Shown: positions 36,017 to 54,965, numbered from the stretch's first letter. The stretch is DNA of 64,000 nt from an uncultured Burkholderiaceae bacterium (GCA_965653625.1 CBFHAS010000002.1:2335-66334); one strand, 5' to 3'. A program made the numbers and translations. Notes: a model not told the origin generated them from the letters alone.

Positions 36017-36814
36017 ATGCCCGCCACCGAGTTCTGGCTCGAAGAGATCTGCCGCATCGCGCGCCACGCGGGAGAGGTCGTGATGGCTGTGTACGCGCAC
36101 GATTTCGCGGCGCGGCGCAAGCGCGACGACTCCCCCGTGACCGAGGCGGATGAAGCCGCCGAGGCGCTCATCGTGCCCGCCTTGCAGCAGCTGGCGCCGG
36201 GCCTCTCGGTCGTGGCGGAGGAAGCCGTCTCTGCCGGCCGGGTGCCTGCGATCGGGGCGCGCTTCTGGCTGGTGGATCCACTCGACGGCACGCGCGAGTT
36301 CCTGGCTCGCAACGACGAGTTCACGGTGAACATCGCGCTGGTCGAGCAAGGCGCGCCTGTGATGGGCGTAGTGCATGCCCCGGCCCTGGGCGTGCTCTAC
36401 GCCGGGGGCGCCGGACTCGGCGCCTTCACCGAGGACGCGGCCGGCAGGCGCCCCATCCATTGCCGGCATGAGCCGACTGACGGCGCAACCATTCTGGCCA
36501 GCCGCTCGCATGGCGACCCGGCGGCATTGCAGGCGTTCCTCGCCGGCCACCGGGTAGCCCTGCTGCGCCACATCGGCTCGTCGCTGAAGTTCGGCCTGCT
36601 GGCCGCGGGCGAGGCAGACCTTTATCCCCGCTCCGGCAAAACGATGGAATGGGACATCGCCGCCGGCCATGCGGTGCTCGCCGCAGCCGGCGGCTCGGTG
36701 ACGGATCTCGCCGGCCAACCGATCCGCTACGGCAAGCCCGGCTTCGGCAATCCGCCCTTCGTGGCCCGCGGCTTGGCCAGCATCACGACGGGAGGAAGTC
36801 CACCGGCCACGTGA
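36017..36814 (+). CDS. cysQ: 3'(2'),5'-bisphosphate nucleotidase
   Basis: SPVTEAD, AEE, WLVDPLDGTREF, WDIAAG. Confidence 0.9.
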   Translation: MPATEFWLEEICRIARHAGEVVMAVYAHDFAARRKRDDSPVTEADEAAEALIVPALQQLAPGLSVVAEEAVSAGRVPAIGARFWLVDPLDGTREFLARNDEFTVNIALVEQGAPVMGVVHAPALGVLYAGGAGLGAFTEDAAGRRPIHCRHEPTDGATILASRSHGDPAALQAFLAGHRVALLRHIGSSLKFGLLAAGEADLYPRSGKTMEWDIAAGHAVLAAAGGSVTDLAGQPIRYGKPGFGNPPFVARGLASITTGGSPPAT

Positions 36815-37868
36815 CGACCATTTGATCCACGTCCTTCGTGCCGAAGTCGAACTGCCGGATGCGCGCGAGGAGCTTGGCCTCCAGCTGCGACGCCTTGAGC
36901 TCGCTGGAGACGACGCGGCAGTCGATCACCTGCCCGGCCGGTGAAATCTTCAGCTCCACCACGACCTTGCCTTGCAGCGACGGGTCATCGCGCAGCGCGC
37001 GGTTGTAGATGGCATAGATCGCGCCTTTGTTGCGCTCGAAGACGAGCTTGATTTCCTCGATGGAGCGGGAGACCTTGCCGCTCGAACCCTTGTGTAGCGT
37101 GCCGCCTTTGCCGCCCGGGCCGCCTGCGCCGTCGCCCTTTCCGCCGCCCCCACCGGCGCCACCGCCTCCGCCGCCCCCGGCCACGCCTTCGACCAGGGTG
37201 GTGGCACGGCCAGCGAGACCCCCGCCGCCGGTGTTGCGGCTGTATGCCGCCGTGTTGATGCCGCCGCTGCCGCCCGTTGCATTGGAGGTAATGAGCGAGC
37301 GCACCGGCGCGCCGGCCTCTCGTCCCGATCCCACGCCGACGCCGACTTCGGTACCTACGCCTGGCCCCTGCTTGATGTCCTGCTTCAATTGCACGGCAGC
37401 CGGTGCGCCACGCAGTTCGGCAAGCTGGTCGGCCATGGCGAGAAGGCCCACGCCGGCGGCCCGGCGCCGGGCGCCTTCAATCTCCCCGGGTGGGCGGTTC
37501 GGCAGCGGCCGGCGAGCCTCGGGCACCGGTGCTTCGCGCGAAGGTTGCGTCTTCACCGGCTCGGGCTTGCGGGTCGCGGCGGCCTGTGGTTGCTGCGGCT
37601 GCTTCTGGGCTTCGGACTCGACCTTGGGCTTGGGCGGCGGAGGCGGTGGCGTCTCGCGCTCAAGCACCAGCTTGGCAAGCCGGGGCGGCAGCTCCTGCGG
37701 CTGCGTGCGATCCGACTGGGGCCGGGGCAGCAGCAGGAAGATCAGACACAGCAGCGCACTGGCGCCAAGCACCCCATTGCGGATGCGGCGAAAGCGCGCC
37801 TCGTCCTGCGGCGACACCGCCCACGGCAGCACCGGCGCGCGAAACGACACGGCAAAGGTGGCACTCAT
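36783..37868 (-). CDS. TonB-like protein with AgmX/PglI-type C-terminal domain (GltG-like)
   Basis: Single N-terminal TM, Pro-rich then Gly-rich linker, C-terminal IYAIYNRALRDDPSLQGKVVVELKISPAG...WPVDF. Confidence 0.85.
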   Translation of the reverse strand: MSATFAVSFRAPVLPWAVSPQDEARFRRIRNGVLGASALLCLIFLLLPRPQSDRTQPQELPPRLAKLVLERETPPPPPPKPKVESEAQKQPQQPQAAATRKPEPVKTQPSREAPVPEARRPLPNRPPGEIEGARRRAAGVGLLAMADQLAELRGAPAAVQLKQDIKQGPGVGTEVGVGVGSGREAGAPVRSLITSNATGGSGGINTAAYSRNTGGGGLAGRATTLVEGVAGGGGGGGAGGGGGKGDGAGGPGGKGGTLHKGSSGKVSRSIEEIKLVFERNKGAIYAIYNRALRDDPSLQGKVVVELKISPAGQVIDCRVVSSELKASQLEAKLLARIRQFDFGTKDVDQMVVTWPVDFLPS

Positions 37869-38359
37869 GACGCCAGCTTCCTGGTCACAGCGAAGGACAC
37901 GTCGCTGAAGTTGGCCCGCGCGGCCGTGTACATGACCTTGCGAAGCAGCTGGTAGGGGATGTCCTTGTCACCCATGATGGTCACCGCCTTGGTCTGCGCC
38001 TGGTTTTCGGCGCGGATCACCTTGCGGCCGGCCTGCAGGTCGAGCTCGTCCTTGAGCGGCGCGATGAGGTCGCCCGCCGCGGCCATCACCTCGGACACCG
38101 AGGCGACCTTGCGGCCATCGACCACGATGTCGGTCTGGCTGATCATGACGACCACGGTCTCGCGCGGGCTCTTATCGGAGATCGACTGCGGCAGCTTCAC
38201 CGCCTTGGAACTCGGGAGAAGCTCCACGCCCGAGGCGCTGGACAGCAGGAAGAAGATGAGGATCGTGAAGATGTCGATCAGCGCGACCAGGTTGAGGTCG
38301 ACCGCCGACTGGTTGCGCGCGTGCCGCTCGGCGCGCTTTTGCAGCGGAGTGAGCTTCAT
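37865..38359 (-). CDS. ExbD/TolR-family protein (AglS-like)
   Basis: LNLVALIDIFTILIFFLL TM with conserved Asp; IMGDKDIPY. Confidence 0.88.
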   Translation of the reverse strand: MKLTPLQKRAERHARNQSAVDLNLVALIDIFTILIFFLLSSASGVELLPSSKAVKLPQSISDKSPRETVVVMISQTDIVVDGRKVASVSEVMAAAGDLIAPLKDELDLQAGRKVIRAENQAQTKAVTIMGDKDIPYQLLRKVMYTAARANFSDVSFAVTRKLAS

Positions 38360-38362
38360 GCG

Positions 38363-38857
38363 CTACTTCCTGGCGACGGGCGCGTCGCCGATGGAGATAT
38401 CGGGAAACAGCTCGATTTGCGTGACCTTCGGGCCGTTCACCTGCTGCGTCTCGCGTACCGCGTCCATCACCTGCACCAACACGTCGTAGGGCGTGTCGGG
38501 CTGGGCCAGCACGGTGGCGGCCACAGCCTGCGGAAAGCGGGCTTTCACCTGCTGCATGAGCGCAGACAACGCCTTCACGTCATAGCCGCCGGCGGTGTTG
38601 GGAATGCGCTGGATCAGGCCGCCGATGCGGTCGCCCACCTCCAGCGCATCGGGCCGGATCACGATCTCGAGCTTCAGGTCCTCGACCTTCAGTTGCTCCA
38701 CGGCGCCGGACGACTGGGCCGGCAGTGTGAGGTCGAGCACCGCCAGGCGGGTGAACACCGCCGTCGACAGCAGGAACGGCACGAGCACCACGATCAGGTT
38801 GATGAACGCGGTGACTTCGAGCGCCGCTGCGTGTTTGCGCAGGCGTCTGACACGCAT
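38363..38857 (-). CDS. ExbD/TolR-family protein (AglQ-like; TM Asp replaced by Asn)
   Basis: LEVTAFINLIVVLVPFLL TM; PDTPYDVLVQVMDAVR. Confidence 0.85.
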   Translation of the reverse strand: MRVRRLRKHAAALEVTAFINLIVVLVPFLLSTAVFTRLAVLDLTLPAQSSGAVEQLKVEDLKLEIVIRPDALEVGDRIGGLIQRIPNTAGGYDVKALSALMQQVKARFPQAVAATVLAQPDTPYDVLVQVMDAVRETQQVNGPKVTQIELFPDISIGDAPVARK

Positions 38858-38864
38858 GGTCGGC

Positions 38865-39524
38865 TTACCTGCCGGTGGTGGCGGTGGTCTCGGCCTTCAC
38901 GCGCTGCACCAGGTTCAGGAAGCTGATCTTGGCCGCCTCCAGACCGTCGACGATCTCGCTGGTGCGCGCCTGCAGGAAGGAGTGGATCAGCAGGAACGGA
39001 ATGGCCACCATCAGTGCGAAGGCGGTGTTGTTCATCGCGATGGAGATGGACGCCGAAAGCAGCTCCGCCTTCTCGGCCGGGTTGACCTGAGCCACCGCAG
39101 TGAAGCCCTTGATCAGGCCGATGATGGTGCCCAGCAGGCCCACCAGCGTGATCACGTTGGCAAATGTCGCGATGTAGTGCGTACGCCGCTCCAGTCGGGG
39201 CACGATTTCCATCATGCCCTCCTCCATGGCGGCATCGATGTCCTCGCGTCGGCCGGGGCTCTGCATGCGCGTGAGGCCGTTGGCCACGATCTTGCCGATG
39301 GCCGCGTCCGACTCGGAGGCCATGCCCAGCACCTCCTTGAAACGGCCGTTTTGCAGCATCGGCAGCAGCTTGGCCCACAGCTGCCGGTTCTGCGTGCGCG
39401 CCCGGCGCAGGAAGATGAAGCGCTCGATCGCGATGGCCAGGCCGGTCGACATGATGAGCAGGCTGGGGTAGATGAACAAGCCGCTGTCCTGAAAGAACTT
39501 CACGGCGGTCTGGAAGGCATTCAT
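38865..39524 (-). CDS. MotA/TolQ/ExbB proton channel protein (AglR-like)
   Basis: IAIERF; LVGLLGTIIGLI; ISIAMNNTAFAL. Confidence 0.92.
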   Translation of the reverse strand: MNAFQTAVKFFQDSGLFIYPSLLIMSTGLAIAIERFIFLRRARTQNRQLWAKLLPMLQNGRFKEVLGMASESDAAIGKIVANGLTRMQSPGRREDIDAAMEEGMMEIVPRLERRTHYIATFANVITLVGLLGTIIGLIKGFTAVAQVNPAEKAELLSASISIAMNNTAFALMVAIPFLLIHSFLQARTSEIVDGLEAAKISFLNLVQRVKAETTATTGR

Positions 39525-39586
39525 CGCTCACTCTTCTCCAATGACAAGAACTGCTGATTCAAAACACGCTTGCTCGGGACACACAT

Positions 39587-39892
39587 TCACTTGGGCGCAG
39601 GCGCGGGTGGCGCGCCCTGCGTGGCGGGCACGCGCACCAGGGCGTCGTACTGGATCCGGCGGCGAAACACGTCGCGGTCCACGGGCGCCAGCGTCTCATC
39701 GAGCACGCTGTCCACCGGGCGCCCGGCGAGCCCGCCAGGCAGCGGCTTTTTCCACGGCACGATGTAGAGCACCTTCGGCAATTCGCGATTGCCGATGATC
39801 TGCGTGCGATCGATGTCGGCGCGATCCTGGGCCCAGGCCGGGGCGGCCGGCATGAGGGCCGTGAACAGCAGTGCAAGCACGGCGTGCCTCAT
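39587..39892 (-). CDS. Small secreted protein (positional GltF/CglF equivalent)
   Basis: Signal peptide (APAWA); IIGNRELPKVLYIVPWK motif; ATGA-coupled. Confidence 0.7.
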   Translation of the reverse strand: MRHAVLALLFTALMPAAPAWAQDRADIDRTQIIGNRELPKVLYIVPWKKPLPGGLAGRPVDSVLDETLAPVDRDVFRRRIQYDALVRVPATQGAPPAPAPK

Positions 39893-40599
39893 TCCTTTTC
39901 CTTCTGGTTCAGCGCCACGGGGGTCGGCTTGCGGTTGCGCAGGTCAGCCACCCACTTGGAGACGGTGGCATCGCCGCCCGGCGACAAGCTCAGGTAGCGG
40001 TCATACAGGGCGAGTGCGCGCGCGCCATCGCCGAGGTACAGGTCGTGCAGGATGCCGAGGTTGAGCTGCGGCGCGGCGTAGTTCGAGTCCAGCGCGATGG
40101 CTTGCTCATAGGCTTGGCGGGCCTGCGTGAAGCGGCCTTGCATGCGGTACGTGATGCCTAGCTGGTTGAAATAGATCGGCTGCTGTGGGTTGGCCTTCAC
40201 GGCTTGCTCCAGCGCAGCGGCGGACTCATCGAGCCTGCCGGCCTGGCGCAGCAAGAGACCGAGGTTGGCGTGCGGGCCGCCCAGTTCGGGATGCGAGCCG
40301 GCGAGTGCGCGAAAGCCCTGCTCGGCCTGCGCGGTACGCCCGTCGCGCAGGGAGCGAAGCGCATCGTCGTACGCTCGCTGCACGGCCGGCGCCACGGGCT
40401 CCGCGGCAGTGCGCTCAGGCGTCGCCGTGACCGCGGCAGGCGCCGACTCGGCAGCGGCCGACGCGAACTGCCCGACCGGCACCATTTTGTACACGGCGTG
40501 CTTCAGAGCCTCGACCGGCTTGTCTGCGGACGCGCAGCCGACGAGTGCGAGGGCCAGCGCCATCGTCGCGCCGCGTTGTGTGCGTTCAGCGAATCGCAT
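39889..40599 (-). CDS. TPR lipoprotein (GltE/AglT-like)
   Basis: Lipobox LVGC; TPR repeats (NLGLLLRQAG, NQLGITYRMQG, NLGILHDLY). Confidence 0.8.
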   Translation of the reverse strand: MRFAERTQRGATMALALALVGCASADKPVEALKHAVYKMVPVGQFASAAAESAPAAVTATPERTAAEPVAPAVQRAYDDALRSLRDGRTAQAEQGFRALAGSHPELGGPHANLGLLLRQAGRLDESAAALEQAVKANPQQPIYFNQLGITYRMQGRFTQARQAYEQAIALDSNYAAPQLNLGILHDLYLGDGARALALYDRYLSLSPGGDATVSKWVADLRNRKPTPVALNQKEKE

Positions 40600-43405
40600 C
40601 GATCGCCCCCTCGCTGTGTTCGTTCTTGCCGTAACGCACCGGGCGTAGCTCGCGCAACGCAGTGAAGCTGCGTTGCACCCAGGTGTCGTAGATGCCGGCA
40701 GCCGCGCGCCGTGTGTTCACCTCGTGCAGCTCGGTGGCCTTCTCTTCGAACGGGAATGCCTGCTCCTCCAGCAGCACGTCGTACTGCTCGCGTTCCAGCT
40801 TGGACAGCTTCCTCGGCCGCTCGGACGCGAGAAGCGCGCGACCGAAATCCTGGTATAGCGACGCGGTGTGGAAGGTGGCCGCGGTGGTCACGTCAGCCAC
40901 GCCGTAGTCGGCCGCGACGGCGTAGGCTTTGAGCACCTCTTCCATGCGGGTCTTTTTCAACTTGAGCTGGCGCGCCAGGGGTTCCACCAGCGCGACCTTG
41001 CGGTAAGCCTCGAGCGTCGGCGCCGCCATGGCAAGCGCCGCCATGCCTCCCAGATACCGAGTGCGCGGCGTGCGTGCCGCGCCGCCTCGCTGGTCAGCCT
41101 GGAAGACTTCCTTCATCAGGGCCAGCTCGCGTGCGGATTGGCCCTCGGCGTGCGCGAGGCCGGCCAGGCGATAGCGCGCCTCGACCGATCGCTCCAGCGG
41201 CTGCGGGTACTTCTTCGCATAGCTTTCATAGGCGTTCGCCGCCGCGGCTCGCGAACCGCCCTTTTCGTGCAGCTCGGCCGCCTGCCAGAGAGCATCACGC
41301 GCCAGCGTCGCGTCATTACCGGTAGCCGCCAGGCGCTCGAGTTCGCTGGCAGCCTGCGACCACCGGCTTTGCTCCATGTAAGCCAGGGTCAGCTTGTTAC
41401 CTACCTCGCCCTGTAGCGGATGCTGCGGGAAGCGTCGGCGAAAGTCTTCGAGCCTGCGTGCAGCGGCGTCCCAGTCCTTCAGCCCGATGAGCGCGGCGGC
41501 CGCGTCGTACTGCGCCGCGACGCGCACGGCCGACTGCGGGGCGACCTGGCCCACGCGATCGAAATGCCCGACCGCCGTGCGCAACTCTCCTGCCTCGCGT
41601 GCCTTTTCACCCTGCTTGTAGACCGATGCCGCAAGCCGCTCCACCAGCTCGGAGCGACCTTTCTCCTTGTCGTCCCTGAGCGCCAATGCCTCGCCGTAAG
41701 CCTGCTCCGCGCGGTCAAACGTGCCGCGGTCGAAGGCCGTGTGCGCAATCACCGTCCACGCCACGCGGCGCTGTGCCGGCGACGCCTGCGGCTTGATGTC
41801 GAGCACCCGCTGCGCGACCGAGGCGGCTTCGCCGTCATTCATGGCGAAGAGCATCTCGGCTGCACGGGTCAGCACCGCTCCCGCACGAGAGTCGGCCGCG
41901 AAGGCATCGGCAAAGCGCAGCGCACTGGCGACCGCTTCGCGCTGCTGCGCGGGAAGATCACCGGCCGCGGCGCGCCTTTCCTGCTGCGCATGGGCGAGCA
42001 ACGCGGAGTAGCCTGCGTCGGCGCTGCGTGCGTGCGCGGGGTAGCCGTAGGCCGTCTTTTCGTACTCGGCGATGGCCTCGGCAAACCGCTGGTTCTCGAA
42101 CAACAGCTCGGCGAGGAGGAAGTTGTTGTGCGGCGCGTCGCCATCGTTGGGGAAGGACTCCAGCCAGGCGCGGTACCAGCGCACCGCCTCCTCGACATCG
42201 GCGCTGCTCCTGCTCTTTTGCGCAGTGGCGTGGCTGTGGCGCGCCAGCTCCGCCAGCTGCGTCTTGACCAGCGGTTGCGCGCGCCCCCAAGCCTGCGGAT
42301 TGGCGCGGCGGAAGTCACTGGCGATGCCGTAACGCACCACGTATTCCTTCTTGGCATCGAGGGCCAGCGTGCCGAACCCGGCCTGCTGGTAAATCTCGAT
42401 GACGCGCGTCTGCAGTTGGGGCGCCCGCTCGTGCAGCGGATGCTCGCGTGCGAACAAGGCAAAGGTGTCGGCCGCGTCCTTGACACGCTCCTGGCGCAGG
42501 TACAGCTCGCCGAGCTGCTCGTACACGCGGAACTCGTAGCTGCGCCTTTGCGGGCTGTCCATGTACGGGGCGATGGACGCCGCGCCTTGCAGGTTGGCCA
42601 GGCACAGGCTGGAGACGCGGAAGGTGTCCTCCACCAGCTCGCGGTCGGCGCGCGTGAGGCCCTTCAGGGTATCGAATCCGCCCTCGCCTTCGCGGTCAGC
42701 GACCTTTCGGTCCAGCACACCGAGGAAGGAGTGCAGCGCATCCTCCAGCCGGCCCTGTTTGAACAACGACCAGCCGTGCATGTACAGCGCGCGCTCGTGA
42801 TACGGGTTGCCGCTGTCGCCCTTCAGCACGGTGGCGTACGCCTGTTCGGCCTTCGCGTAGGCACGCATGGCAAACAGCAGCTCGCCGCGGCGGAAATGAG
42901 CCTCGTCGCCATGGTGAGTCGCCGGGTACTGGGCCACCAGCCGGTCGAGAGTTGCCAGCGCGGGTTCCAACTGGCCGCCTTGCTCGTGCGCGCGGGCCAG
43001 CTGATAGAGCACTCGATCGTTGGCCGGATTTTGCGGATAAGCCTTGAGGTATTCCTCGTAGCGCGCGATGGCGGCACGGTAGTCGGGGCCCGAGCCGGCA
43101 GCATCGCTGGCGCTCTGCCGGTCGGCACTGTCCATCTCGAGGTCCGCAATGCGGCGCATCGCATCGGCGCGCTGCGGCGCATGCGGCGCCACTTCGAGGA
43201 ACTTGCGATACGCGGCGATGGCCTGTTCCTCGCTGGGCGCGATGCCCGGATCCGGCTCCACCTTCACGCTGCGGCCTTCCAGAGTCTTGAGTGTGGGCGG
43301 CTCCGGCGGGATGGCGTTGCGCTTGCTGGCGCAGGCCGCCAGCCCGCACGCCACCATCACCGCGAGCAGCGCGCGGCCGGGGCTACTGGGGCTGCTGCGT
43401 CGCAT
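40586..43405 (-). CDS. Large TPR lipoprotein (GltD/AgmU-like)
   Basis: Lipobox LAAC; many TPR-like helical repeats; C-terminal LEEQAFPFEEKA. Confidence 0.8.
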   Translation of the reverse strand: MRRSSPSSPGRALLAVMVACGLAACASKRNAIPPEPPTLKTLEGRSVKVEPDPGIAPSEEQAIAAYRKFLEVAPHAPQRADAMRRIADLEMDSADRQSASDAAGSGPDYRAAIARYEEYLKAYPQNPANDRVLYQLARAHEQGGQLEPALATLDRLVAQYPATHHGDEAHFRRGELLFAMRAYAKAEQAYATVLKGDSGNPYHERALYMHGWSLFKQGRLEDALHSFLGVLDRKVADREGEGGFDTLKGLTRADRELVEDTFRVSSLCLANLQGAASIAPYMDSPQRRSYEFRVYEQLGELYLRQERVKDAADTFALFAREHPLHERAPQLQTRVIEIYQQAGFGTLALDAKKEYVVRYGIASDFRRANPQAWGRAQPLVKTQLAELARHSHATAQKSRSSADVEEAVRWYRAWLESFPNDGDAPHNNFLLAELLFENQRFAEAIAEYEKTAYGYPAHARSADAGYSALLAHAQQERRAAAGDLPAQQREAVASALRFADAFAADSRAGAVLTRAAEMLFAMNDGEAASVAQRVLDIKPQASPAQRRVAWTVIAHTAFDRGTFDRAEQAYGEALALRDDKEKGRSELVERLAASVYKQGEKAREAGELRTAVGHFDRVGQVAPQSAVRVAAQYDAAAALIGLKDWDAAARRLEDFRRRFPQHPLQGEVGNKLTLAYMEQSRWSQAASELERLAATGNDATLARDALWQAAELHEKGGSRAAAANAYESYAKKYPQPLERSVEARYRLAGLAHAEGQSARELALMKEVFQADQRGGAARTPRTRYLGGMAALAMAAPTLEAYRKVALVEPLARQLKLKKTRMEEVLKAYAVAADYGVADVTTAATFHTASLYQDFGRALLASERPRKLSKLEREQYDVLLEEQAFPFEEKATELHEVNTRRAAAGIYDTWVQRSFTALRELRPVRYGKNEHSEGAIDAIR

Positions 43406-45293
43406 CACTGGGGTTCCTTGCCAGGCTGGCGCGGTCGTAGAGCTGCGCCACGGCGAAGCGCGCCTGCATGGCGTACACCGCGAGTCGCTCCTTCTGGTGG
43501 GTGAGTTCGGCCACGGCGATGTCTTCCACTGCGCGCTGCTGTTCAGCCACAAGCGTGGTCACTTGAGGGATGAGGGCCTGGACGCGCCCGTTGAGTTGGG
43601 CGATGCGCCGTCCGAAGGCATCGAAGCGCGCCGGCTCGTCGCGCTGCGCCTGCACGAGCGCCGCATCGCGGCTGCGGGCCTCGGCCAATTGCCGGTCCAC
43701 GATGTCCATGTCCTTCTTCGCGGCCCAGGCGCGTGCCGGGAAGTCCTGCGCCAACTGCCACGTGAGCACGCCGGCGGCGACACGGGCATGCTGGCGAGCA
43801 TCACCGTAGTCGGGCTGGTTTCCGAGCCTCGCAAGCGTTTCCCTCACACCGGCCAGCCGGGCCATCAACGCGCGCTCGCGCTCGTTGGCGAAAGCCAACC
43901 CGGTGGCGGTGCTCATGGCTTCGGAGAATTCGCTGGCCAGCGCGTTGCGGCGCTGCTCCAACCCGGCGATGCCGCGCGTGCTGTCCTTCGCGCCTGCCAG
44001 CACCTGCGGCAGACGCTCGGTATAGGCGTGGCGGCGGTTGTCGAGCATGTCGACGAAGACCGCGAGTTGCTCGTCCCAATGCGCCAGGTTGCGGCCCAGG
44101 AAACGCAAGTCGCGCAGGTTCTTGAACGACTCCTGGAACTCGTGCTGCGCGAGTACCTGGGCCAGATGGCCGGCGTAGGGCATCTCGGGCAAGACGCGCA
44201 GCGCCCACGCCTGGCCGGCGTTGTCGCCTGGGTTGCGCTCCAGCAGACCCTCCACCAGCTTGCCGGCGCGGATGGCGGCGATGGATTCATCGAGCTGAGC
44301 GCTCTCTCGCTCGAACAGCGTGATCGCGTCCTGGTATCGCGCGAGCGACTGCCCGTAGGCGCCCAGCTCGGCATAGGCGTAGGGCACCGCGATGCGCGCT
44401 TCGAGCACCGCGGCGTCGGAGCCGTCGCGGTCGAGAAGCTCCATCCAGGGCACCAGGGCCAGCTTGGGCTGGTGCAGCGAGGCAGCGGCCCAGCCGAAGC
44501 CGAGCAGGGCCTTGTTCGAATCCATGGCAGACAAACGCACGCGCGACAGTGCGTGGCGCGCCGCCTGCGGACGCTGATCCTGCAGCGCGGCGAAGCCGAG
44601 CGCGACATTGGCGCGGTCTCGCAGGCTGCGGAACTCCTCGACCGGCATGTGGGCTGGCGTGGGCGAGCCGCCCAGCTCATCGAGCATGGCCGTGCCTCGC
44701 TCGGCGTCGCCGCTGCGCACGAGCGCCACGCCGAGGTTGAAGCGGGCATACCAGGTGGCCTTGGCTTGCTGCGCCATGCCGTTCAGCACGCCGGCGGCAC
44801 CGGCATGGTCGCCGCGCGCCATGAGCAGGTTGGCGTGCAACAGCGCGCGCTCCTCTTCCAGTTCGCCGGGCAGAACGCCGTCGATGCGCGCCAGCGCATC
44901 GACGGCCTCAGCGTCGAAGCCGCGCTGGTAGCGGATCTTGGCGAGGAAAAACCAGGCGCGGTTGCGCACCGAGGGCACTGCCCCTTTGTCGATGAGCTCG
45001 GCGAAGATGCGGCCCGCTTCGCGGTGCAACCCGTACGACAGCAGCATGCCGCCGCGCAGCAACTCGGCTTCGTCGGCATGCAACACGACGCGGCCGAAAT
45101 GCTGCGAGGCCATCAGGGTGGTGATGGCGGTGAAGTGGCTGTCCTGGAAGAAATGGAACAGCGTGTCGCCGTAATGGGGCTCGCGCACCGGCTGCGGCGC
45201 CGGCCCGGCAGAAGGCTCGGCCTGCACGCCGACGGCGCATAGCCCGGCCGCCGCGGCCAGCACTGCGTGGCGGAGAAAGCGGTGCAGGCGCAT
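43383..45293 (-). CDS. Periplasmic TPR / coiled-coil protein (GltC-like)
   Basis: Signal peptide (GVQA); TPR-like N-half; coiled-coil C-half. Confidence 0.75.
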   Translation of the reverse strand: MRLHRFLRHAVLAAAAGLCAVGVQAEPSAGPAPQPVREPHYGDTLFHFFQDSHFTAITTLMASQHFGRVVLHADEAELLRGGMLLSYGLHREAGRIFAELIDKGAVPSVRNRAWFFLAKIRYQRGFDAEAVDALARIDGVLPGELEEERALLHANLLMARGDHAGAAGVLNGMAQQAKATWYARFNLGVALVRSGDAERGTAMLDELGGSPTPAHMPVEEFRSLRDRANVALGFAALQDQRPQAARHALSRVRLSAMDSNKALLGFGWAAASLHQPKLALVPWMELLDRDGSDAAVLEARIAVPYAYAELGAYGQSLARYQDAITLFERESAQLDESIAAIRAGKLVEGLLERNPGDNAGQAWALRVLPEMPYAGHLAQVLAQHEFQESFKNLRDLRFLGRNLAHWDEQLAVFVDMLDNRRHAYTERLPQVLAGAKDSTRGIAGLEQRRNALASEFSEAMSTATGLAFANERERALMARLAGVRETLARLGNQPDYGDARQHARVAAGVLTWQLAQDFPARAWAAKKDMDIVDRQLAEARSRDAALVQAQRDEPARFDAFGRRIAQLNGRVQALIPQVTTLVAEQQRAVEDIAVAELTHQKERLAVYAMQARFAVAQLYDRASLARNPSDATQQPQ

Positions 45294-45298
45294 CGCGG

Positions 45299-45898
45299 CT
45301 ATTGCCACACTTTGACGTCGAACTCGGGCTGCAGCTTGCCGGCCGAATCTTTGATGCGCAGCTCGATGTACTTCGGATCGGTTCCCTTGTCGAAGCGCAT
45401 CGTCGCACCGCGCTTGTAGTCACGCGTGTGCGGCCCCCGGCCAGTGAAGAAGGCCACGAGCTCATGCGCGCCCGCCTTCAGGTTGCCCAAGTACAGGCGC
45501 TGCACGCCACCTCGATGCAGTGCCTGCACTTCCAGCGGTGTGTAGAGGTAGTTGGCCACCACCTTGTCATCGAGCTTGACCTGCACGGAATCCAGCTCGA
45601 AGAGCTTGCCCACGTCCATGGAGACGAACACCGCCACCTGCGTGCCGGCGGGAAACAGAAGCTCCTCTTCCAGCACCAACAGGTCGCGGTTGAGCTTGAT
45701 GACGTCGGCCTTGGCGTCCTGGACGCGCGTGTCGAGGCCGGTGCGCGAATCGGGCGCGCTGGCCGCCGAAGCGGCGGAGGCGGGCGAGGCGGGTGCCGCC
45801 ACCGCGGTCGGCGCTGCATCCGCGGCCTGCGCCAAGGGTGACCACGCAAAGCCGGCGAAGAGCATCGCGGCGAGGATCAAACGGCATCGAGTCAGCAT
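45299..45898 (-). CDS. Conserved secreted hypothetical protein
   Basis: Signal peptide (LAQA), Ala-rich linker, coiled coil LNRDLLVLEEELLFP, beta-rich C-terminus. Confidence 0.75.
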   Translation of the reverse strand: MLTRCRLILAAMLFAGFAWSPLAQAADAAPTAVAAPASPASAASAASAPDSRTGLDTRVQDAKADVIKLNRDLLVLEEELLFPAGTQVAVFVSMDVGKLFELDSVQVKLDDKVVANYLYTPLEVQALHRGGVQRLYLGNLKAGAHELVAFFTGRGPHTRDYKRGATMRFDKGTDPKYIELRIKDSAGKLQPEFDVKVWQ

Positions 45899-47302: not shown

Positions 47303-47814
47303 TCCTTCAGCAAGTCCCGGATCTGCTGCTCATAGGTCTGCTCCATGCCTTCGCGGTAGCCGCGGTGCAGGAAACGTGCGCGTCCATCGCGGTCGATGAG
47401 CACGGTGGCCGGCATGGCGCTCAAGTCGTACAGCCGGCTCACGCGCTTGTCGGTGTCCAGCAGCACAGGGAACTTCAGGCCGAGCCGCAAAGCCAGCTCG
47501 GCGGCAGCCTTCGCGTCCTCGTCGATGTTCACGCCCAGCAGCACGAAACCCGAAGGCCGGTACTTCTCGTACAGACGATTCAGATGCGGCATCTCCTGCC
47601 GGCAAGGGCCGCACCAGGTGGCCCAGAAGTTGACCAGCACCACCTGCCCGCGCTGCTCCTGCAAGCGCAGGTTGGGCCCGTCCACGCGGCGCAGCGTGAA
47701 GTCTGGCGCGGCAGCGAACAGCGCGACAGCGGACATCGCCGCCGACGCGCCAGCCGCCAGCGTGGCAGCCAGCAACGCGCGAGCGGCGCGGCGCAGGACG
47801 CATCGGTACGTCAT
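47299..47814 (-). CDS. TlpA/ResA-family thiol-disulfide oxidoreductase
   Basis: VNFWATWCGPC, cis-Pro AMPATVLID, N-terminal export signal. Confidence 0.92.
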   Translation of the reverse strand: MTYRCVLRRAARALLAATLAAGASAAMSAVALFAAAPDFTLRRVDGPNLRLQEQRGQVVLVNFWATWCGPCRQEMPHLNRLYEKYRPSGFVLLGVNIDEDAKAAAELALRLGLKFPVLLDTDKRVSRLYDLSAMPATVLIDRDGRARFLHRGYREGMEQTYEQQIRDLLKE

Positions 47815-48495: not shown

Positions 48496-49281
48496 TCAGA
48501 AGAAGAACGCGAGTCCGGCCGTGAAGGCCTTGAACTCGCTGCTGCGCGTGTCGGCCACAAAGGCGGTGTAGAAGGAGTAATCAGCGCGCAGCACGAAGCG
48601 CTCGGTGAGATGCCAGCGCAGCCCGATGCCGGCGTGAGCCAGCTTCGCGTCTGTGGGCAGCGCGCCCACGAGGCTCAGGTTCGGCACATTGCGGAACCTG
48701 CCGAAGCCCACGCCGAAGAAGGGCGACAGCCGCCGGTCGGACCACGGCTCGGACACGAGTCCGACATGCCAGAAGTCGCTGCCCGAGTACAAGCCCTGCA
48801 CCTGGCCCAGGTCGCCTTCGAGGCTGAGCGTTTCAGACACGCGCCAGCCGGTCCAGAGCTTGAGCATCGGCTTGGCATCGAAGCGGCCCCACGCGACGCC
48901 GAACTGCACCTTGCGGCCCAGGTAGTCGTCGAGCATCACGTCGCGGAAGGTCTTGGTGCCGCCTGCCTCCGTGAGCGTGGTTTCGAGCTGATGGCGATGC
49001 ACCCAGCCGACCTTGCCGCCCGCTGTGCGGACCTTGTACCAGTCGGTGTGGCGCAACTCGACCTCGATCCACTCAGAACGTGCGGCCACGAAGAAGACGG
49101 GGTAGCCGCGTCCCGGCCCGGTGCGAAGCTCGATGTACGGATCGGTGACTTGCAGTCTTTCCAGCGCCGGCTCGGCGGCACGCGAGGGCATGGCGGCCAA
49201 GGCACACCAGCCCAGGAGCAAGGCCGCCAGGATGCGCGGCACGGTGCCCCACAGGGTCATGAGCGAGGGCTGAAGTCTCAT
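48496..49281 (-). CDS. SH3b domain + outer-membrane beta-barrel protein
   Basis: IELRTGPGRGYPVF...WYKVRTAGGKVGWV (SH3b), then barrel ending LAFFF. Confidence 0.8.
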   Translation of the reverse strand: MRLQPSLMTLWGTVPRILAALLLGWCALAAMPSRAAEPALERLQVTDPYIELRTGPGRGYPVFFVAARSEWIEVELRHTDWYKVRTAGGKVGWVHRHQLETTLTEAGGTKTFRDVMLDDYLGRKVQFGVAWGRFDAKPMLKLWTGWRVSETLSLEGDLGQVQGLYSGSDFWHVGLVSEPWSDRRLSPFFGVGFGRFRNVPNLSLVGALPTDAKLAHAGIGLRWHLTERFVLRADYSFYTAFVADTRSSEFKAFTAGLAFFF

Positions 49282-49907
49282 TGGGTGTTGCAAGCCCCGT
49301 TGGACGTGAACATGGCGCTGCTGCCGGCGCTGCTGAACTCATCCTGGCCCTGCCCCACCGGATGCGTGATCCAGTACTGGATCAGCCGGGCATTCGGGTC
49401 TTGCGTGCTCTCGAAGATGAGCCCGCCCCCGTGCAACACCTGCATCACCAGCGGCTTGGTGAGAAGCCGGCTCTGCAGTGGCGTGCCCACGAGCACCGAG
49501 CCGCGCGCCGAGTAGTAGTTCTTGTACATGTCGGTCGCACGGATCGCCTCTGGCGTGTTCGCCGGGTCATCCACATCGACTTCGGCAGCCGCCGGAATGA
49601 CCCGGAAGGCGCCGCCGGTGCCGGTGGCGTTGTCATGGCAACCCGAGGAGGCACATGTGTTGGTGGACACCACACCCCCCTGTTGGATCTGCAACTGGGC
49701 CAGGAAGATCGGGTTGATGCACTTCTGGAAGTACACGAACGACAGCGACTGGCCCGTGATGCTTCCCGGGTTCTCGACCAGCGGAGGGTTGTCCAGCGGG
49801 TTCGAACCCGAGCCGCCACACGCGGTCAGCGCGAGCGCGAGTGCGGCCACGCCGAACGTGTGTCGCAGGGCAAGCGCACCGCGACGCCTCAGACGAAGGA
49901 TCGGCAT
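49278..49907 (-). CDS. Putative c-type heme lipoprotein (CX4CH)
   Basis: Lipobox LTAC; INPIF...TCASSGCH...SRLLTKP...LHGGG...IQYWI. Confidence 0.7.
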   Translation of the reverse strand: MPILRLRRRGALALRHTFGVAALALALTACGGSGSNPLDNPPLVENPGSITGQSLSFVYFQKCINPIFLAQLQIQQGGVVSTNTCASSGCHDNATGTGGAFRVIPAAAEVDVDDPANTPEAIRATDMYKNYYSARGSVLVGTPLQSRLLTKPLVMQVLHGGGLIFESTQDPNARLIQYWITHPVGQGQDEFSSAGSSAMFTSNGACNTQ

Positions 49908-49909
49908 GG

Positions 49910-52900
49910 TCAGGGGCAGCCTCCCTGGATCCAATTGAAGATGGTGGTGTAGCTGGCACTGCCCGCCGGCAGCACGGCAGTGCCCTGCCCCTGCGCGCCC
50001 GCGGGATGCGGCACCGTGGACGGACGCGATAGCAATGAATTAGACCCCGCATTGCACGCGTCGTTGATCATCGTCAGCGTGACGTTGTAGTCACCTTCCG
50101 GGTCACCGGTCAGCACGAAGCGGTTGTTGTTGAACGACGTGCCCGCCGCCACGCCATCGGCACCGCTGCCCACAGCCTGGTGGCAGCCCGACGCGCAGGT
50201 GCTGCGCAAGATGGGGAACACCTGCGAGTTGAATGTCGTCTCGCTGAGTCCGCTGATGGTGAGCACGCCGTTGCCGGGGCTCATCGGGTCGTTGTAGTAC
50301 TGCCCACCCAGATCCATCCACTCGGCGAGAAGGCGCTTCTCGGCCGCGTTGAGCATGGTCGCGTGATTCGGCGCGCCAGCCGGCGGATTTGGATGCGCTT
50401 CGAATGCGTCTGCGCCGGTCATGAGCCGCTCGCCGAAGAGGATTTCGGTGAGCCGGCTCTTGCGCGCCAAGCCCACGGCATCTCCTTCGCTGGCTTCGGT
50501 GCTCACGAGCGCCGGGCCGCGCTCAACCACCGGCACGCCGTCTTCGATGCGGGTGCGCGGCAGGCCGGTGTCGGTGTCGATCACCGGATCGCCCAACAGC
50601 AGTTCCTCATAAGAGGTGAGCCGGCCGGTGCCGGCCACGCCATTGCGCAGATCAAGCTTGGCCGGGTCGTTGTGGCACGCGGTGCAGGTGTTGGCGCCAC
50701 GGTTGCGCGCCCACAGGGGCTGGATGTGCTCGGGGTAGTTGATGATCCCGTTCACCGGCACCGCTGTGGCCAGGTCGTCAGCGGCGTTCGCGTTGCCGGT
50801 GTAGCGCAGAGAAATGGCGGTGCGCGCGGTGACGCCAGGCTTGGCGGTGTCGGCCCAACGATCGGTCCACAGCAGGTCGGCGAGACGGTTCAGCGCCGTG
50901 GGATCGTCCCGCGTCAGCGTGGAAGCCATTGTTTCGCCGGAACGATGCTTGGAGGCCATGGCAGCCAGCCAGCCTTCAGGCACGTTGTTCACGATGGCGC
51001 CGGAGTTCAGCGCAGCCCCGCGACGCGGGCTGTGGCAACCGTCGCAGGTGCGCCGCTCGCCGGGGCGCACCTGGATCCAGTTGGTGTGGGTCTGGAAGGC
51101 GCGACCTTTTTCGTCGATGACCGCCAGCGCGATCGGCACGTCGGCCGGCACCTTCAGCTTGAACGACCCATCGGGCTCGATGGGCATGTAGCCAAGGATC
51201 TGCTGCATCTCGAAGTCGGTTTCGCCAATGGCGCGACGCAGTCCCATGCTGCCGGACGGTGGAGCCACCGCGCGGGTGACGCGCACGAAACGCGCAGGCG
51301 CGCAGCGATAGGCCGGATCGGCCGGGTTTTTCATGCGCACCAGATCAGCCACCAGCGGCCTCGTGTCCAGCGTGTCGCTCGGGGCGATCTTGGGGATGGC
51401 GGTAGTGCAGCCCGGCGCGAGGTCGGCCGCTGTCAGCACTGGGTCACCCATGCGCCCGAGGCCATCGGTGTCGTAAACGCTGCGAACTTCGAGCAGGCCC
51501 TCGTTTGCGGTAGCAAGGTCGTCGTCGATTTGGGTCGGGTCGACCACGTTCGGCTCGTCGCGCGCCAGCAGCGCGACCGGGTCGGTGTACATGTACTCGG
51601 ACCCGCCGGGTGTCGCCACCGGACGCCACTTCTTCTCTGCCGGGTCGAACATGTAGATTGCGTAGGCGGGCGGCGCGGTGTCCTGCAGTTCATCGGCCTG
51701 CGCCTCGGCACGCGAGCGGTTTCGGTTGGAAAGCCTCGCGAGTTCATCATCGGTGAGTTCGGCGCAGGGAATCACGTCGCCATTGCGCGTGACTTCACAG
51801 GGCCGGAACGCTGCGAGCACACGGTCGGTGCCGTCCCACAGCGGGTACGGGGTGGTGACGCGCCCGAAGCGCGACAGCCCCCGCCCGATGCTCAGTTGCT
51901 TCTCGGGCTCTGTGGGCTGCGACTGGCCGCCCTGCGCCGGCACGAGCGAACTGCTCGGCGTGTTGTGCTCCGAGTAGTTCGCAACGTCGACGAACACCAG
52001 CGCGCCGCCCTCCCTCGTGCCCGACAGCGGCATGAGGTCCGACGACACGAAGCCTTTGTACTGACCCTTGGGATCCATGTCGCGCGGATGCAGGAAGCTG
52101 TTGCCTTCGCTGTGCGCGCCGTACAGCACAAACATGTCGGTGCCATCGGGCTTCACGCGGAAGATCTTGAAGTGGTTGCGCCCGCCGACGTGATCCCAGC
52201 GCGAGAACATGATGTCACCGTTGGGCCTCACCACCGGGTTGCGGTCGTGGCTCTGGTTCACCGAGATCTGAACGATGTTGCCGCCATCGGCATCCATGGT
52301 GTGCAGGTTCATCACCCGCTCGCGCTCGTATTCATCGAGCGCGAAGTAGGTGCGGTCCAGCGCCTGCTTGCTCGACTGCAGCTGACGGTTCGACGTGAAC
52401 ACGAAGCCGCGCCCACCAGGAAGATAGACCGGGTCGGCGTCGTCGTCCTGCGTGGAGTGCGTCAGGCGGCGGAACGTACCGTTGGCCAGGTCGCTGTCGG
52501 TGGTGTCGTATTCCCAGATATTCCATCGCCCGGTACAGGCAGGCTGCCCTTCGATGGTGGACGTGTTGTCCGTCGGGCATCGCATGGCGAAGACGATTTT
52601 CTTGCCGTCGTACGACACCTCGGGGTCGGAGGCGTCTCCTTTACCCTGCGTGAAGCGCTCGGTGATGTTGATCTCCGGCGCGCTGGGCGAGGACTTCTCC
52701 CGAATGATGAGGTCACCGCCGGGCGCGGTGGGTGCGCCGTTGGTGGGATTCGCCTCGATTTCGGTGGATCGCTTCACATAGGCGATGGGCACATCGCCCT
52801 GCACCGTCACTTCGCCACTGCCGCTGCCGCAGCCCCCCACGGCCCCGACGAGCGTGGCTACGGCCAGTGCGAACGCACCCCTGCCTCCGATGTATTTCAT
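49910..52900 (-). CDS. Hydrazine synthase alpha-like lipoprotein: PD40/TolB propeller + HZS-alpha-like middle domain + cytochrome c domains
   Basis: Lipobox VGGC; PD40-like repeats (DPEVSYDGKKIVF, DPVYLPGGRGFVFTS, NPVVRPNGDIMFSRWDH); PIEPDGSF...VPAD...WIQVRPGERRTCDGCH; CTACH; CASGCH. Confidence 0.78.
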   Translation of the reverse strand: MKYIGGRGAFALAVATLVGAVGGCGSGSGEVTVQGDVPIAYVKRSTEIEANPTNGAPTAPGGDLIIREKSSPSAPEINITERFTQGKGDASDPEVSYDGKKIVFAMRCPTDNTSTIEGQPACTGRWNIWEYDTTDSDLANGTFRRLTHSTQDDDADPVYLPGGRGFVFTSNRQLQSSKQALDRTYFALDEYERERVMNLHTMDADGGNIVQISVNQSHDRNPVVRPNGDIMFSRWDHVGGRNHFKIFRVKPDGTDMFVLYGAHSEGNSFLHPRDMDPKGQYKGFVSSDLMPLSGTREGGALVFVDVANYSEHNTPSSSLVPAQGGQSQPTEPEKQLSIGRGLSRFGRVTTPYPLWDGTDRVLAAFRPCEVTRNGDVIPCAELTDDELARLSNRNRSRAEAQADELQDTAPPAYAIYMFDPAEKKWRPVATPGGSEYMYTDPVALLARDEPNVVDPTQIDDDLATANEGLLEVRSVYDTDGLGRMGDPVLTAADLAPGCTTAIPKIAPSDTLDTRPLVADLVRMKNPADPAYRCAPARFVRVTRAVAPPSGSMGLRRAIGETDFEMQQILGYMPIEPDGSFKLKVPADVPIALAVIDEKGRAFQTHTNWIQVRPGERRTCDGCHSPRRGAALNSGAIVNNVPEGWLAAMASKHRSGETMASTLTRDDPTALNRLADLLWTDRWADTAKPGVTARTAISLRYTGNANAADDLATAVPVNGIINYPEHIQPLWARNRGANTCTACHNDPAKLDLRNGVAGTGRLTSYEELLLGDPVIDTDTGLPRTRIEDGVPVVERGPALVSTEASEGDAVGLARKSRLTEILFGERLMTGADAFEAHPNPPAGAPNHATMLNAAEKRLLAEWMDLGGQYYNDPMSPGNGVLTISGLSETTFNSQVFPILRSTCASGCHQAVGSGADGVAAGTSFNNNRFVLTGDPEGDYNVTLTMINDACNAGSNSLLSRPSTVPHPAGAQGQGTAVLPAGSASYTTIFNWIQGGCP

Positions 52901-52940
52901 GGTTCCCCTCAACTGTTCCGATTCGACGAGCGAGTCGCGT

Positions 52941-53936
52941 TCATGCCGGTTTGGCTGGCGCGGCGGCCAGCAGCCCGGACGAGTAATGCAGTTCTCCAGC
53001 AGCGTCGACCACGACAGCGTCGACTCCCTCCAGCGACTCCACGAGCCGCATTCCTTGTTCGACGCCCAGCACGAACACCGTCTTCGACATCGCCTCGGTG
53101 GTCAGGCCGTCGGCGGCGACGATGGTCACGCTGTGCACGCCCGACGGTGACTTGCCCGTCTTCGGGTCGATGAGGTGATGGCACCGCTCGCCGTTCACCT
53201 CGAAGTAGCGCTCGTAATCGCCTGATGTGGAGAGGGCCAGGTCTTCGAGCGGCAACATGGCCACGACCTCTCCTTCCCGCCGCGGATGGCGGATGCCGAT
53301 GGTCCAAGGCCGGCCCCGCCGGTCGCCAATCACACGGCTGTCGCCGCCGGCAGTCACGATGGCATGGGCAATGCCACGTCGGCGCAAGATGGCCGCACCC
53401 ATCTCCACCGCATGGCCCTTGGCGAAACCGCCGAGATCGATGCGAACACCTTCGCGGGCGAAACGAACGCTGCGGTGCCGAGGATCGAGCTCCAGGTGTC
53501 GCCAGCCGACGGCGTCGCGGGCGCGTGCCAAAGCGTCTTCAGTCGGCCGCACGCCTTGCCGGTAGTCGTACAGCTGGCCGGCACTCGCAAAGGTGATGTC
53601 GAACGCGCCACCCGACAGACTCGAGAATTCGATGGCGCAGGCCAGCAGGTGGAAAAGTTCCTCGCTCACCGGTACCGGCGCGGCGGCGGCCTCGCGGTTG
53701 ATGCGGGAGAGATCCGAGTCGGGCCTGAATGGGCTCATGGCGCGGTCGATGCGGTGCATCTCGGCCATGACCGCATCGATGGCCGCCTCTCCGGCCGGGC
53801 GATCCTCGCTCCACAGCTCCACGCGGATGGCGGTGCCCATGATCGCCTCGTCGCGTGCGAGCCAACCGGCCTCTGCACGGGCGCGAGAACCACTCGAACC
53901 GGCGTGCGGCGCCGGCGCCAGGAACCCGAAGCGCAT
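52941..53936 (-). CDS. apbE: FAD:protein FMN transferase
   Basis: MGT, IDLGGFAKG, AGGD, STSGDYERYF, HHLIDPKTG. Confidence 0.93.
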   Translation of the reverse strand: MRFGFLAPAPHAGSSGSRARAEAGWLARDEAIMGTAIRVELWSEDRPAGEAAIDAVMAEMHRIDRAMSPFRPDSDLSRINREAAAAPVPVSEELFHLLACAIEFSSLSGGAFDITFASAGQLYDYRQGVRPTEDALARARDAVGWRHLELDPRHRSVRFAREGVRIDLGGFAKGHAVEMGAAILRRRGIAHAIVTAGGDSRVIGDRRGRPWTIGIRHPRREGEVVAMLPLEDLALSTSGDYERYFEVNGERCHHLIDPKTGKSPSGVHSVTIVAADGLTTEAMSKTVFVLGVEQGMRLVESLEGVDAVVVDAAGELHYSSGLLAAAPAKPA

Positions 53937-54310
53937 GGCTAGGGTCGGCTCCGAACCGCGAAACTGAACGAACTCCAACCCTCACCGAATGGCTGCACGC
54001 CGTTTCTCGCTCGTTTGTTTATTGACAGACGCACACGGCGTCCTGGAGAGCAACCACGCAGTTCACGTGCCCGCACAACGGGGCGCATCTTGAGGCTGTC
54101 GGGCGGGCGAATTCGTCAAACTCCCTGCAAAAGGCGCAGTTTTTACATCAGGACGCGGAAGAAACATGACGCTTTTTGGCGCGTGTGCATACAAGCAATT
54201 CATCTGTGTACGAACGCAACGAGAATCGCTTCAGAACCGGCTGGTCCGTTTATTGCGGCCTCGCAGGGTTGCGCAGCGCACTGCCGTGCCGACATTTCGC
54301 CACTGCCTCA

Positions 54311-54964: not shown

Positions 54965-54965
54965 C

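Follow-up and report, generated by a model that had tools for sequence, protein, structure and literature searches.

The alpha subunit of hydrazine synthase (HZS), HzsA, is known from 'Ca. Kuenenia stuttgartiensis' (PDB 5C2V/5C2W, chain A) as a six-bladed propeller followed by a middle domain with a CxxCH motif and by a type-I cytochrome c domain, the haem of which is bis-His-ligated. A 996-residue lipoprotein of the same build was encoded on the minus strand of the DNA analysed here, a 64,000-nucleotide stretch (the window) from an uncultured Burkholderiaceae bacterium (GCA_965653625.1, CBFHAS010000002.1:2335-66334). The residue numbers and roles in HzsA were taken from PMC12758564 and PMC12607021. 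Haem alpha-I of HZS cannot be reduced owing to its ligation by Tyr591, a feature linked to the condensation chemistry proposed for the enzyme (PMC12607021), the zinc site consists of Cys303 and His587 (PMC12758564, PMC12607021), and haem alpha-II, to which no role is assigned, is too far from alpha-I for electron transfer (PMC12607021). Hagglund et al. 2025 (PMC12758564) reported structural homologues of HzsA in numbers above 600, none with known function, and rejected anammox activity for those that they examined.

Two other described systems resemble the genes that surround the HzsA-like gene. The first is an extracytosolic electron-transfer (flavinylation) cluster of ApbE, DUF3570, thioredoxin, and DUF4266, the function of which was called "uncertain" and in which DUF3570 was shown experimentally to be flavinylated by ApbE at two tandem motifs (Meheust et al. 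2021, PMC8238504). The second is the Agl/Glt "core complex", which was found in non-gliding Gamma- and Betaproteobacteria with "unknown function" (Luciano et al., PMC3169522). The outer-membrane platform of Myxococcus includes the paired small barrels GltA and GltB, the lipoprotein GltK, and the cargo CglB, a lipoprotein with a propeller as its first domain (PMC11761067). The HzsA-like protein was found to be the most conserved partner of both systems of open function, the DUF3570 module (PMC8238504) and the Agl/Glt core in non-gliders (PMC3169522), and a three-way linkage of HzsA-like protein, DUF3570 module, and Glt-like motor was not found in the literature searched. The interest of the locus lies in this operon linkage rather than in the protein, and the linkage makes the role of the Glt core in non-gliding bacteria testable.

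Relation of the 996-residue protein to HzsA

A search of the PDB with the single sequence returned 5c2v_A (Kuenenia HzsA) at E 5.5e-11, and a search with the family profile returned the same chain at E 1.1e-34 in an alignment that spanned CSGCH, CAMCH, and His772. By sequence, Kuenenia HzsA was the sole solved relative of the protein. The AlphaFold2 (AF2) model (predicted local distance difference test (pLDDT) 88.8, predicted template-modelling score (pTM) 0.89) matched 5c2v_A/D in Foldseek at E 1e-28 to 2e-29 over about 965 columns at 16% identity, with a template-modelling (TM) score of 0.65 normalised to HzsA. TolB was the next-best match (E 1.4e-11), confined to the propeller with a query TM score (TMq) of 0.23. 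Since the HzsA match was full-length, whereas the TolB match covered the propeller only, the HzsA-like build was considered real. An earlier note, made from the sequence alone, had read the gene as encoding an HZS alpha-like lipoprotein of a betaproteobacterium that does not perform anammox; the Pfam, Foldseek, and profile searches and the lack of hzsB and hzsC all agreed with this reading, and the protein proved to be HzsA-like over its full length and more than a generic TolB propeller.

Conservation was counted over 70 diverse representatives (32-58% identity), the alignment of which also served to build the AF2 model. The signal peptide ended in a lipobox, and the lipid-anchor Cys24 was kept in at least 90% of the representatives, in agreement with the anchor proposed earlier. 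By the Lol rule a glycine at position +2 predicts sorting to the outer membrane, and the protein, which carries Gly at this position, would be sorted there. The propeller had about 25 strands in the AF2 secondary structure, consistent with six four-stranded blades; its earlier assignment was borne out by the match of the model to TolB structures, and the Pfam PD40 model itself stayed below threshold (17.1 vs 20.9 bits), as did the TolB equivalog TIGR02800 (27.6 bits vs a cut-off of 343). The Pfam family HZS_alpha (PF18582) matched the middle domain at E 9.7e-20 (71.4 bits, cut-off 26.6), and this domain aligned with residues 479-560 of the HzsA chain. The match ended exactly at CDGCH, the CxxCH at which the earlier note had placed the end of the domain. 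In this motif, C619, G621, and C622 were present in 70/70 representatives and H623 in 68/70. Two further cytochrome domains had also been anticipated, and both were found. The first carried CTACH and His846, with C742 and H743 in all 70 representatives and H846 in 69; both CxxCH motifs of HzsA were thus kept, and the distal His772 of haem alpha-II corresponded to His846. The second, a helical domain with CASGCH, was present in 34 of the 70, and the C..CH motif with the downstream histidine (His965) was found in all 34 of those. Besides the lipid cysteine and the three haem motifs, the cysteines made up four pairs, and this even pairing, together with the lipobox, fits an extracytoplasmic location of the protein. 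The host genome carried maturation genes for both the Ccm and the ResB cytochrome c systems, and all three haems would be ordinary His-ligated, redox-active c-haems.

The features specific to HZS were not kept. Unlike in HzsA, Tyr591 was replaced by Arg627 and Cys303 by His263, as seen in sequence alignment only; the Arg627 column held R in 27, S in 11, D in 8, T in 7, and N in 4 of the representatives, with Tyr outside the top five, and the His263 column held His in 47/70, next to an invariant Gly261. Further differences from HzsA were the lipoprotein anchor, the extra third cytochrome-like domain, and the aerobic-type betaproteobacterial host. The HzsA equivalog NF052339 scored 52.9 bits against a cut-off of 800 and matched only the middle-domain stretch 565-628. 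In the whole 95.8%-complete genome, the best hydrazine_beta match (hzsB) stayed at 66.8 bits (cut-off 560) and the best hydrazine_gamma match (hzsC) at 36 bits (cut-off 625), each on another contig. No multihaem gene like those of hydroxylamine oxidoreductase or hydrazine dehydrogenase (HAO/HDH) was found in the window, where the HzsA-like open reading frame (ORF) alone had at least two CxxCH motifs. The earlier statement that hzsB, hzsC, and hydrazine dehydrogenase genes are missing from the window therefore held, and for hzsB and hzsC it extended to the genome. Because NF052339 was far below its cut-off, Tyr591 and Cys303 were replaced, and hzsB and hzsC were absent, the protein lacks the HZS-specific catalytic features; it is an HzsA-type scaffold and not a hydrazine synthase.

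The family of the protein is already catalogued, though unstudied, and a further member is no discovery alone. When 1.84 billion cluster representatives were searched in full with HMMER, 4150 clusters (50% identity) matched at E<=1e-3 and 422 at E<=1e-30. Members were already named "HzsA-related protein" in NCBI and UniRef, among them proteins from Piscinibacter, Ideonella, Albitalea, and Aquabacterium with 69-74% identity to that of the window, and Pfam HZS_alpha also matched in the control genome of Bacteroides thetaiotaomicron. The rarity implied in the earlier note was accordingly not upheld, the family having thousands of members and non-anammox HzsA homologues being already described in PMC12758564. 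The non-anammox clades I-IV of that study (Planctomycetota, Syntrophobacter, Opitutus) share with the present protein the HZS_alpha domain and the lack of Tyr591 and Cys303, and their TM scores to HzsA are 0.66-0.67. They are without His772 and are co-located with fused beta-gamma homologues, which resemble cytochrome c peroxidase (CCP), with FG-GAP proteins, and with ABC binding proteins, whereas in the present clade His772 is retained, a beta-gamma partner is lacking, and the neighbours are the DUF3570 module and the Glt-like motor. Aerobes thus widely carry an HzsA scaffold in which the bis-His alpha-II site is intact, which bears on the evolution of hydrazine synthase from existing periplasmic haem proteins. 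Many of the homologues (P0003-P0122) had a precomputed match to Pfam PF26549.1, and no PF26549.1 match was found in the window protein at E<=1. A genome of the same order (G159) contained four HZS_alpha ORFs of 1000-1800 residues (C1:2228762, 2784426, 3674139, 3707275), which resembled the window protein in the middle domain only and look like a different, larger architecture of the HZS_alpha domain. The same genome had a DUF3570 match in an open frame of roughly 912 residues, about twice the usual length.

The next gene downstream encoded a 209-residue lipoprotein with a CX4CH motif, which was kept in 77/77 orthologues. When the profiles of this protein and of domain 3 were compared with hhalign, they aligned over 101 columns (Prob 92.8%, E 3.9e-7), with the Cys, the His, and the C-terminal WI helix in register. 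The relationship was seen only between profiles; a BLASTP comparison of the two single sequences gave no significant match (E 0.12). The profiles show the 209-residue protein and domain 3 to be paralogues, the former free-standing and probably a mono-haem partner of the HzsA-like protein. No family was found for it in Pfam and NCBIfam, its AF2 model (pLDDT 73) had no match among PDB folds (best E 5.6), and Pfam scans of domain 2, domain 3, or the small lipoprotein, each alone, returned zero matches. Among 78 Burkholderiales orthologues of the HzsA-like protein, the motif of domain 3 was CX3CH in 42 and CX2CH in 36, the CX3CH of the window representing a one-residue insertion. It is unusual for a haem loop to tolerate such an indel between close orthologues (loci L001-L080).

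The gene call was settled by the guanine-cytosine (GC) content at codon positions and the translations of both strands, which placed the coding ORF on the minus strand with exactly the limits given in the earlier note. The ATG at 52898-52900 was preceded by the GAGGGGA sequence, 5 nt ahead, similar to a ribosome-binding site (RBS), the stop codon lay at 49910-49912, and the product was identical to database protein P0003. Long ORFs occurred on both strands here because the window is GC-rich (about 66-70%). The plus-strand ORF of 997 residues (50180-53173) was rejected as a shadow ORF, being Arg/Ala-rich with zero family matches, and a TTG start at 52912 was dropped in favour of the ATG, which had the RBS and agreed with the database protein.

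The operon and its conservation

The HzsA-like gene was the second in a co-directional minus-strand operon of 17 kb. The order was apbE, HzsA-like, the mono-haem-type lipoprotein, an SH3 protein with an outer-membrane barrel, an OMP_myx_plus barrel, a TlpA-like thioredoxin, DUF4266, and DUF3570, followed by a 641-residue tetratricopeptide repeat (TPR) protein, a 988-residue TPR protein with YbgF repeats, a GltE-like TPR protein, a 101-residue protein, ExbB, ExbD, ExbD, and a TonB-like protein. This order was identical in 80/80 Burkholderiales loci, as far as each contig reached, from Piscinibacter, Rhizobacter, Ideonella, Aquabacterium, Caldimonas, Rubrivivax, Methylibium, and Rhodoferax. It was also kept in distant genomes from Alteromonadaceae and other families, with HzsA-like proteins 28-31% identical to that of the window and with Alteromonadaceae (Glaciecola, Paraglaciecola, Alteromonas) as the closest named relatives. 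The conserved core of both groups comprised the HzsA-like protein, the two outer-membrane barrels, TlpA, DUF4266, DUF3570, the TPR proteins, ExbB/D/D, and the GltG-type TonB protein, and the two barrels were always directly downstream of the HzsA-like gene, distant genomes included. apbE and the mono-haem lipoprotein were fixed in the Burkholderiales loci only; in one genome (G175), apbE lay on the opposite strand just past DUF3570. The order kept in the Burkholderiales, and in Alteromonadaceae at about 30% identity, fits the earlier description of the protein as a client of the operon. A full Burkholderiales-type operon (68% identity) was also found in a metagenome-assembled genome labelled "uncultured Solirubrobacterales bacterium" (L067, CAVVYW010000006.1), where wrong binning or labelling is a more probable cause than transfer.

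All four genes of the flavinylation cluster of PMC8238504 were represented in the operon, and its DUF3570 carried the tandem S/T-x-A-S/T motifs at the corresponding place. In contrast, that paper made no mention of an HzsA-like cytochrome, outer-membrane barrels, or a Glt-like motor, and its supplements did not contain HZS_alpha. No DsbD gene was found in the operon. Like the other HzsA-linked DUF3570 proteins, that of the operon was of a divergent subtype; it scored about 100 bits compared with 250-590 for typical members, and a second DUF3570 gene with a higher model score was present in the same genome (G000, contig C19:757-1842); two further genomes (G349 and G373) showed the same pattern of two paralogues. 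Flavinylation of the HzsA-like protein itself by ApbE was considered and set aside, as no motif of the D-x-x-[ST]-G-A-[ST] type was seen by eye and the nearest candidate, NSGAIV, lacked the final S/T.

The second half of the operon resembled the Agl-Glt core of Myxococcus xanthus in its ExbB/ExbD/ExbD motor, its TonB-like protein with an AgmX/PglI tail (NCBIfam myxo_SS_tail, 63.9 bits, cut-off 40), its GltD/E-like TPR proteins, and, nearer the HzsA-like gene, the OMP_myx_plus barrels. The cytoplasmic Glt parts were absent here, and the equivalog scores were far below cut-off for both GltE (45 bits vs 225) and GltG (43 vs 650). Like CglB with GltA, GltB, and GltK, the HzsA-like protein is a propeller-first lipoprotein accompanied by two small barrels and by small lipoproteins, but its effector domains carry haem motifs and are not a von Willebrand factor A (VWA) adhesin; the resemblance is one of position and architecture only, and the protein had no match at E<=1 among the gliding-family models in NCBIfam. 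The Tol-Pal system offers another likeness, with the propeller fold shared with TolB and a TolQRA-type motor and a YbgF-type TPR protein (tol_pal_ybgF, 110.6 bits for the 988-residue protein) nearby. Unlike TolB, the HzsA-like protein has no TolB N-terminal domain, and it has a lipid anchor and some 550 additional residues, in which the three haem motifs lie.

Co-occurrence was analysed in 401 sampled genomes from the host's phylum. HZS_alpha was found in 12 of them, DUF3570 in 28, and the GltG/J-type tail above cut-off in 12. HZS_alpha and the tail occurred together in 9 genomes (hypergeometric p 7e-14, ignoring phylogeny, about 6 families). The distance between the two was 2-15 kb in 6 of these 9 genomes and 21 kb in a seventh, and a DUF3570 gene lay within 5 kb of the HzsA-like gene in 7 genomes. 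A genome of another family in the same class (G259; locus L105, C1:2086001-2106000) encoded a 977-residue two-haem HzsA-like lipoprotein directly after ExbB-ExbD-ExbD-GltG-like genes, and no DUF3570 was detected in that genome. It had a second GltG-type gene at C1:707684.

Proposed role and alternatives

Given the observed fold, motif conservation, linkage, and co-occurrence, the reading we favour, at a probability of roughly 55%, is that the HzsA-like protein is a redox-active, probably catalytic haem client of an envelope machine, fed by flavin, docked at the outer membrane by barrels, and coupled to a motor. Reductant would pass from TlpA through the CxC motif of DUF4266 to DUF3570 carrying flavin mononucleotide (FMN), flavinylated by the adjacent ApbE, and the small cytochrome lipoprotein would hand it on to the haems of the HzsA-like protein. 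A small substrate, either an oxidant or a metal, may be turned over at the haem that lies between propeller and middle domain. The protein would be held at the outer membrane by the two GltA/B-type barrels, a platform on which the proton-driven ExbB/ExbD/GltG-like motor would act, and it would make no hydrazine. The strong selection on the haem sites across the representatives argues for this reading.

Several points weigh against it. The Alteromonadaceae cluster lacked the small cytochrome, and the stretches examined there showed no apbE. About two thirds of the DUF3570 clusters had no HzsA-like gene, so the flavin module does not need the HzsA-like protein. The co-occurrence statistics span only about 6 bacterial families, and no member of the family has an experimental study. 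The direction in which electrons would move is purely inferred, as is the substrate. Since haem alpha-II of HZS is out of electron-transfer range of alpha-I (PMC12607021), an internal haem wire is not guaranteed either.

A more specific possibility, which we put forward only tentatively, is that the ancestral Agl/Glt core has as its native cargo the HzsA-related propeller cytochrome, which would occupy the position that CglB has in Myxococcus. In Beta- and Gammaproteobacteria that do not glide, the proton-driven Tol-like motor would then position, gate, or expose the multihaem lipoprotein through the GltA/B-type barrels, and a relay of TlpA, DUF4266, and FMN-DUF3570 would wire this lipoprotein to the reductant pool of the cell. 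If so, the operon would encode an energised trans-envelope redox machine of an undescribed kind, and it would answer what the Glt core did before its recruitment to gliding. Culturable carriers exist (Ideonella, Caldimonas, Rubrivivax, Alteromonadaceae), and a single redox machine of three modules is thus testable.

The layout of the operon, with its ExbB/ExbD/TonB-like motor, YbgF-type TPR protein, propeller protein, and outer-membrane partners, is also that of Tol-Pal, and the HzsA-like protein might be a structural adaptor, its propeller binding the C-terminus of the GltG/TonB-like protein and the outer-membrane barrels just as TolB engages TolA and Pal. In that case the haems would serve only folding, stability, or redox sensing with no turnover. 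The match of the propeller to TolB structures at E about 1e-11, the position of the HzsA-like gene of G259 directly after the TonB-like gene, and the lack of an assigned role for haem alpha-II in HZS itself are in line with this. However, three haem sites and a dedicated haem paralogue near-invariant over a deep family would be costly if purely structural, the protein travels with a thiol/flavin redox module, and its score with the TolB equivalog is far below cut-off, which together make the adaptor unlikely.

A periplasmic peroxidase, or an oxidant-detoxifying terminal reductase, would be a sub-case of the favoured catalytic client: fed by TlpA, DUF4266, and DUF3570, it would reduce H2O2 or organic peroxides, and the motor would have no catalytic part. 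The adjacent low-potential thiol/flavin donor module, the match of the thioredoxin to the Redoxin and AhpC-TSA models, and the aerobic carriers suit such an enzyme. It is nonetheless distinctly improbable, as family-model scans found no CCP/MauG-type domain or known peroxidase residues in the 996-residue protein, two ordinary CCP/MauG genes unlinked to the operon are already present elsewhere in the host genome, and the proton-driven motor would be left without a reason. The weight remaining beyond these readings goes to something not considered, apart from the small share of a nitrogen-oxide, hydroxylamine, or hydrazine enzyme in the periplasm, in which an alpha-I-type haem would perform HZS-like condensation or other N-N/N-O chemistry, as the earlier note had suggested: HzsA is the only solved homologue and conservation is highest in the middle domain, home of the catalytic haem alpha-I, but the replacement of Tyr591 and Cys303, the low HzsA equivalog score, the absence from the genome of hzsB and hzsC and with them of the hydroxylamine-delivering beta and gamma subunits, the lack of an HAO/HDH-type multihaem gene in the window, the ordinary aerobic heterotrophs among the carriers (Glaciecola, Alteromonas, Ideonella, Rubrivivax), and the equally negative verdict of PMC12758564 on other homologues from outside anammox make this very improbable.

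Feature coordinates and neighbouring genes

Table 1. Features of the HzsA-like gene and its operon, in window coordinates.
Feature	Position	Strand	Evidence
apbE (FMN transferase), first operon gene, immediately upstream	52941..53978	-	PF02424 E 1.8e-82; syntenic where loci reach it
HzsA-related tri-haem lipoprotein gene (putative haems)	49910..52900, including stop codon	-	ORF, GC at third codon positions (GC3), RBS, identity to P0003, Pfam HZS_alpha, Foldseek to 5c2v
Signal peptide and lipobox, MKYIGGRGAFALAVATLVGAVGG-C24 (ends LVGAVGG-C)	52829..52900	-	Translation, residues 1-24
TolB-like beta-propeller, residues about 37-445	51566..52792	-	AF2 secondary structure, Foldseek to TolB and HzsA propeller
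His263 in YGAHS, aligned to zinc ligand Cys303 of Kuenenia HzsA	52112..52114	-	Profile alignment to 5c2v_A
HZS_alpha-type middle domain, residues about 466-623, beta-rich; Pfam match 557-623	51032..51505	-	PF18582, alignment to HzsA
Haem-1 motif CDGCH, residues 619-623, counterpart of HzsA haem alpha-I CSGCH	51032..51046	-	Alignment, conservation
Arg627, aligned to HzsA proximal ligand Tyr591	51020..51022	-	Alignments to 5c2v_A
HzsA-type C-terminal cytochrome c domain, helical, residues about 635-875, with EWxDxG motif	50276..50998	-	Alignment to HzsA CAMCH and His772
CTACH motif, residues 739-743	50672-50686	-	Aligned to HzsA CAMCH
Distal His846	50363-50365	-	Aligned to HzsA His772
Third cytochrome-like helical domain, residues 880-996	49913..50263	-	Carried by part of the family
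CASGCH (CX3CH) of domain 3, residues 902-907	50180-50197	-	Sequence and conservation
His965 of domain 3	50006-50008	-	Conservation
209-residue lipoprotein with CASSGCH (CX4CH), next gene downstream	49278..49907	-	Orthologue conservation, profile comparison
SH3 and small outer-membrane barrel	48496-49293	-	Pfam SH3_3 and OMP_b-brl
OMP_myx_plus small outer-membrane barrel	47827-48486	-	TIGR04565 137.4 bits, cut-off 60
TlpA-like thioredoxin	47299-47814	-	Redoxin E 3.4e-28; also matches AhpC-TSA model
DUF4266 CxC lipoprotein, tail GGGCGCK	47060-47302	-	PF14086 E 3.8e-19
DUF3570; true start probably further in	45913-47136	-	PF12094 E 3.6e-33, tandem motifs DAVSSAS and DVVTTAS
Agl/Glt-core-like block, 641-residue TPR protein through TonB-like protein with GltG/GltJ-type C-terminal domain	36783..45308	-	Pfam, NCBIfam, synteny

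A block of roughly 20 kb, consisting of the operon, ccmAB, and an inositol monophosphatase gene, lay between two polyhydroxybutyrate (PHB) genes, phaR (PHB_acc) and phasin (35247-36002 and 55762-56307, both on the minus strand), and its sequence composition gave no sign of recent insertion. Divergent from the operon on the plus strand were a ccmA-like ABC ATPase gene (54176-54964) and ccmB (54879-55634; PF03379 E 5.8e-63). The ccmB neighbour was kept in only 7 related loci. No ccmC-H followed the ccmAB of the window, the phasin gene being next on the other strand; CcmE was located on contig C54 and ResB on C12.

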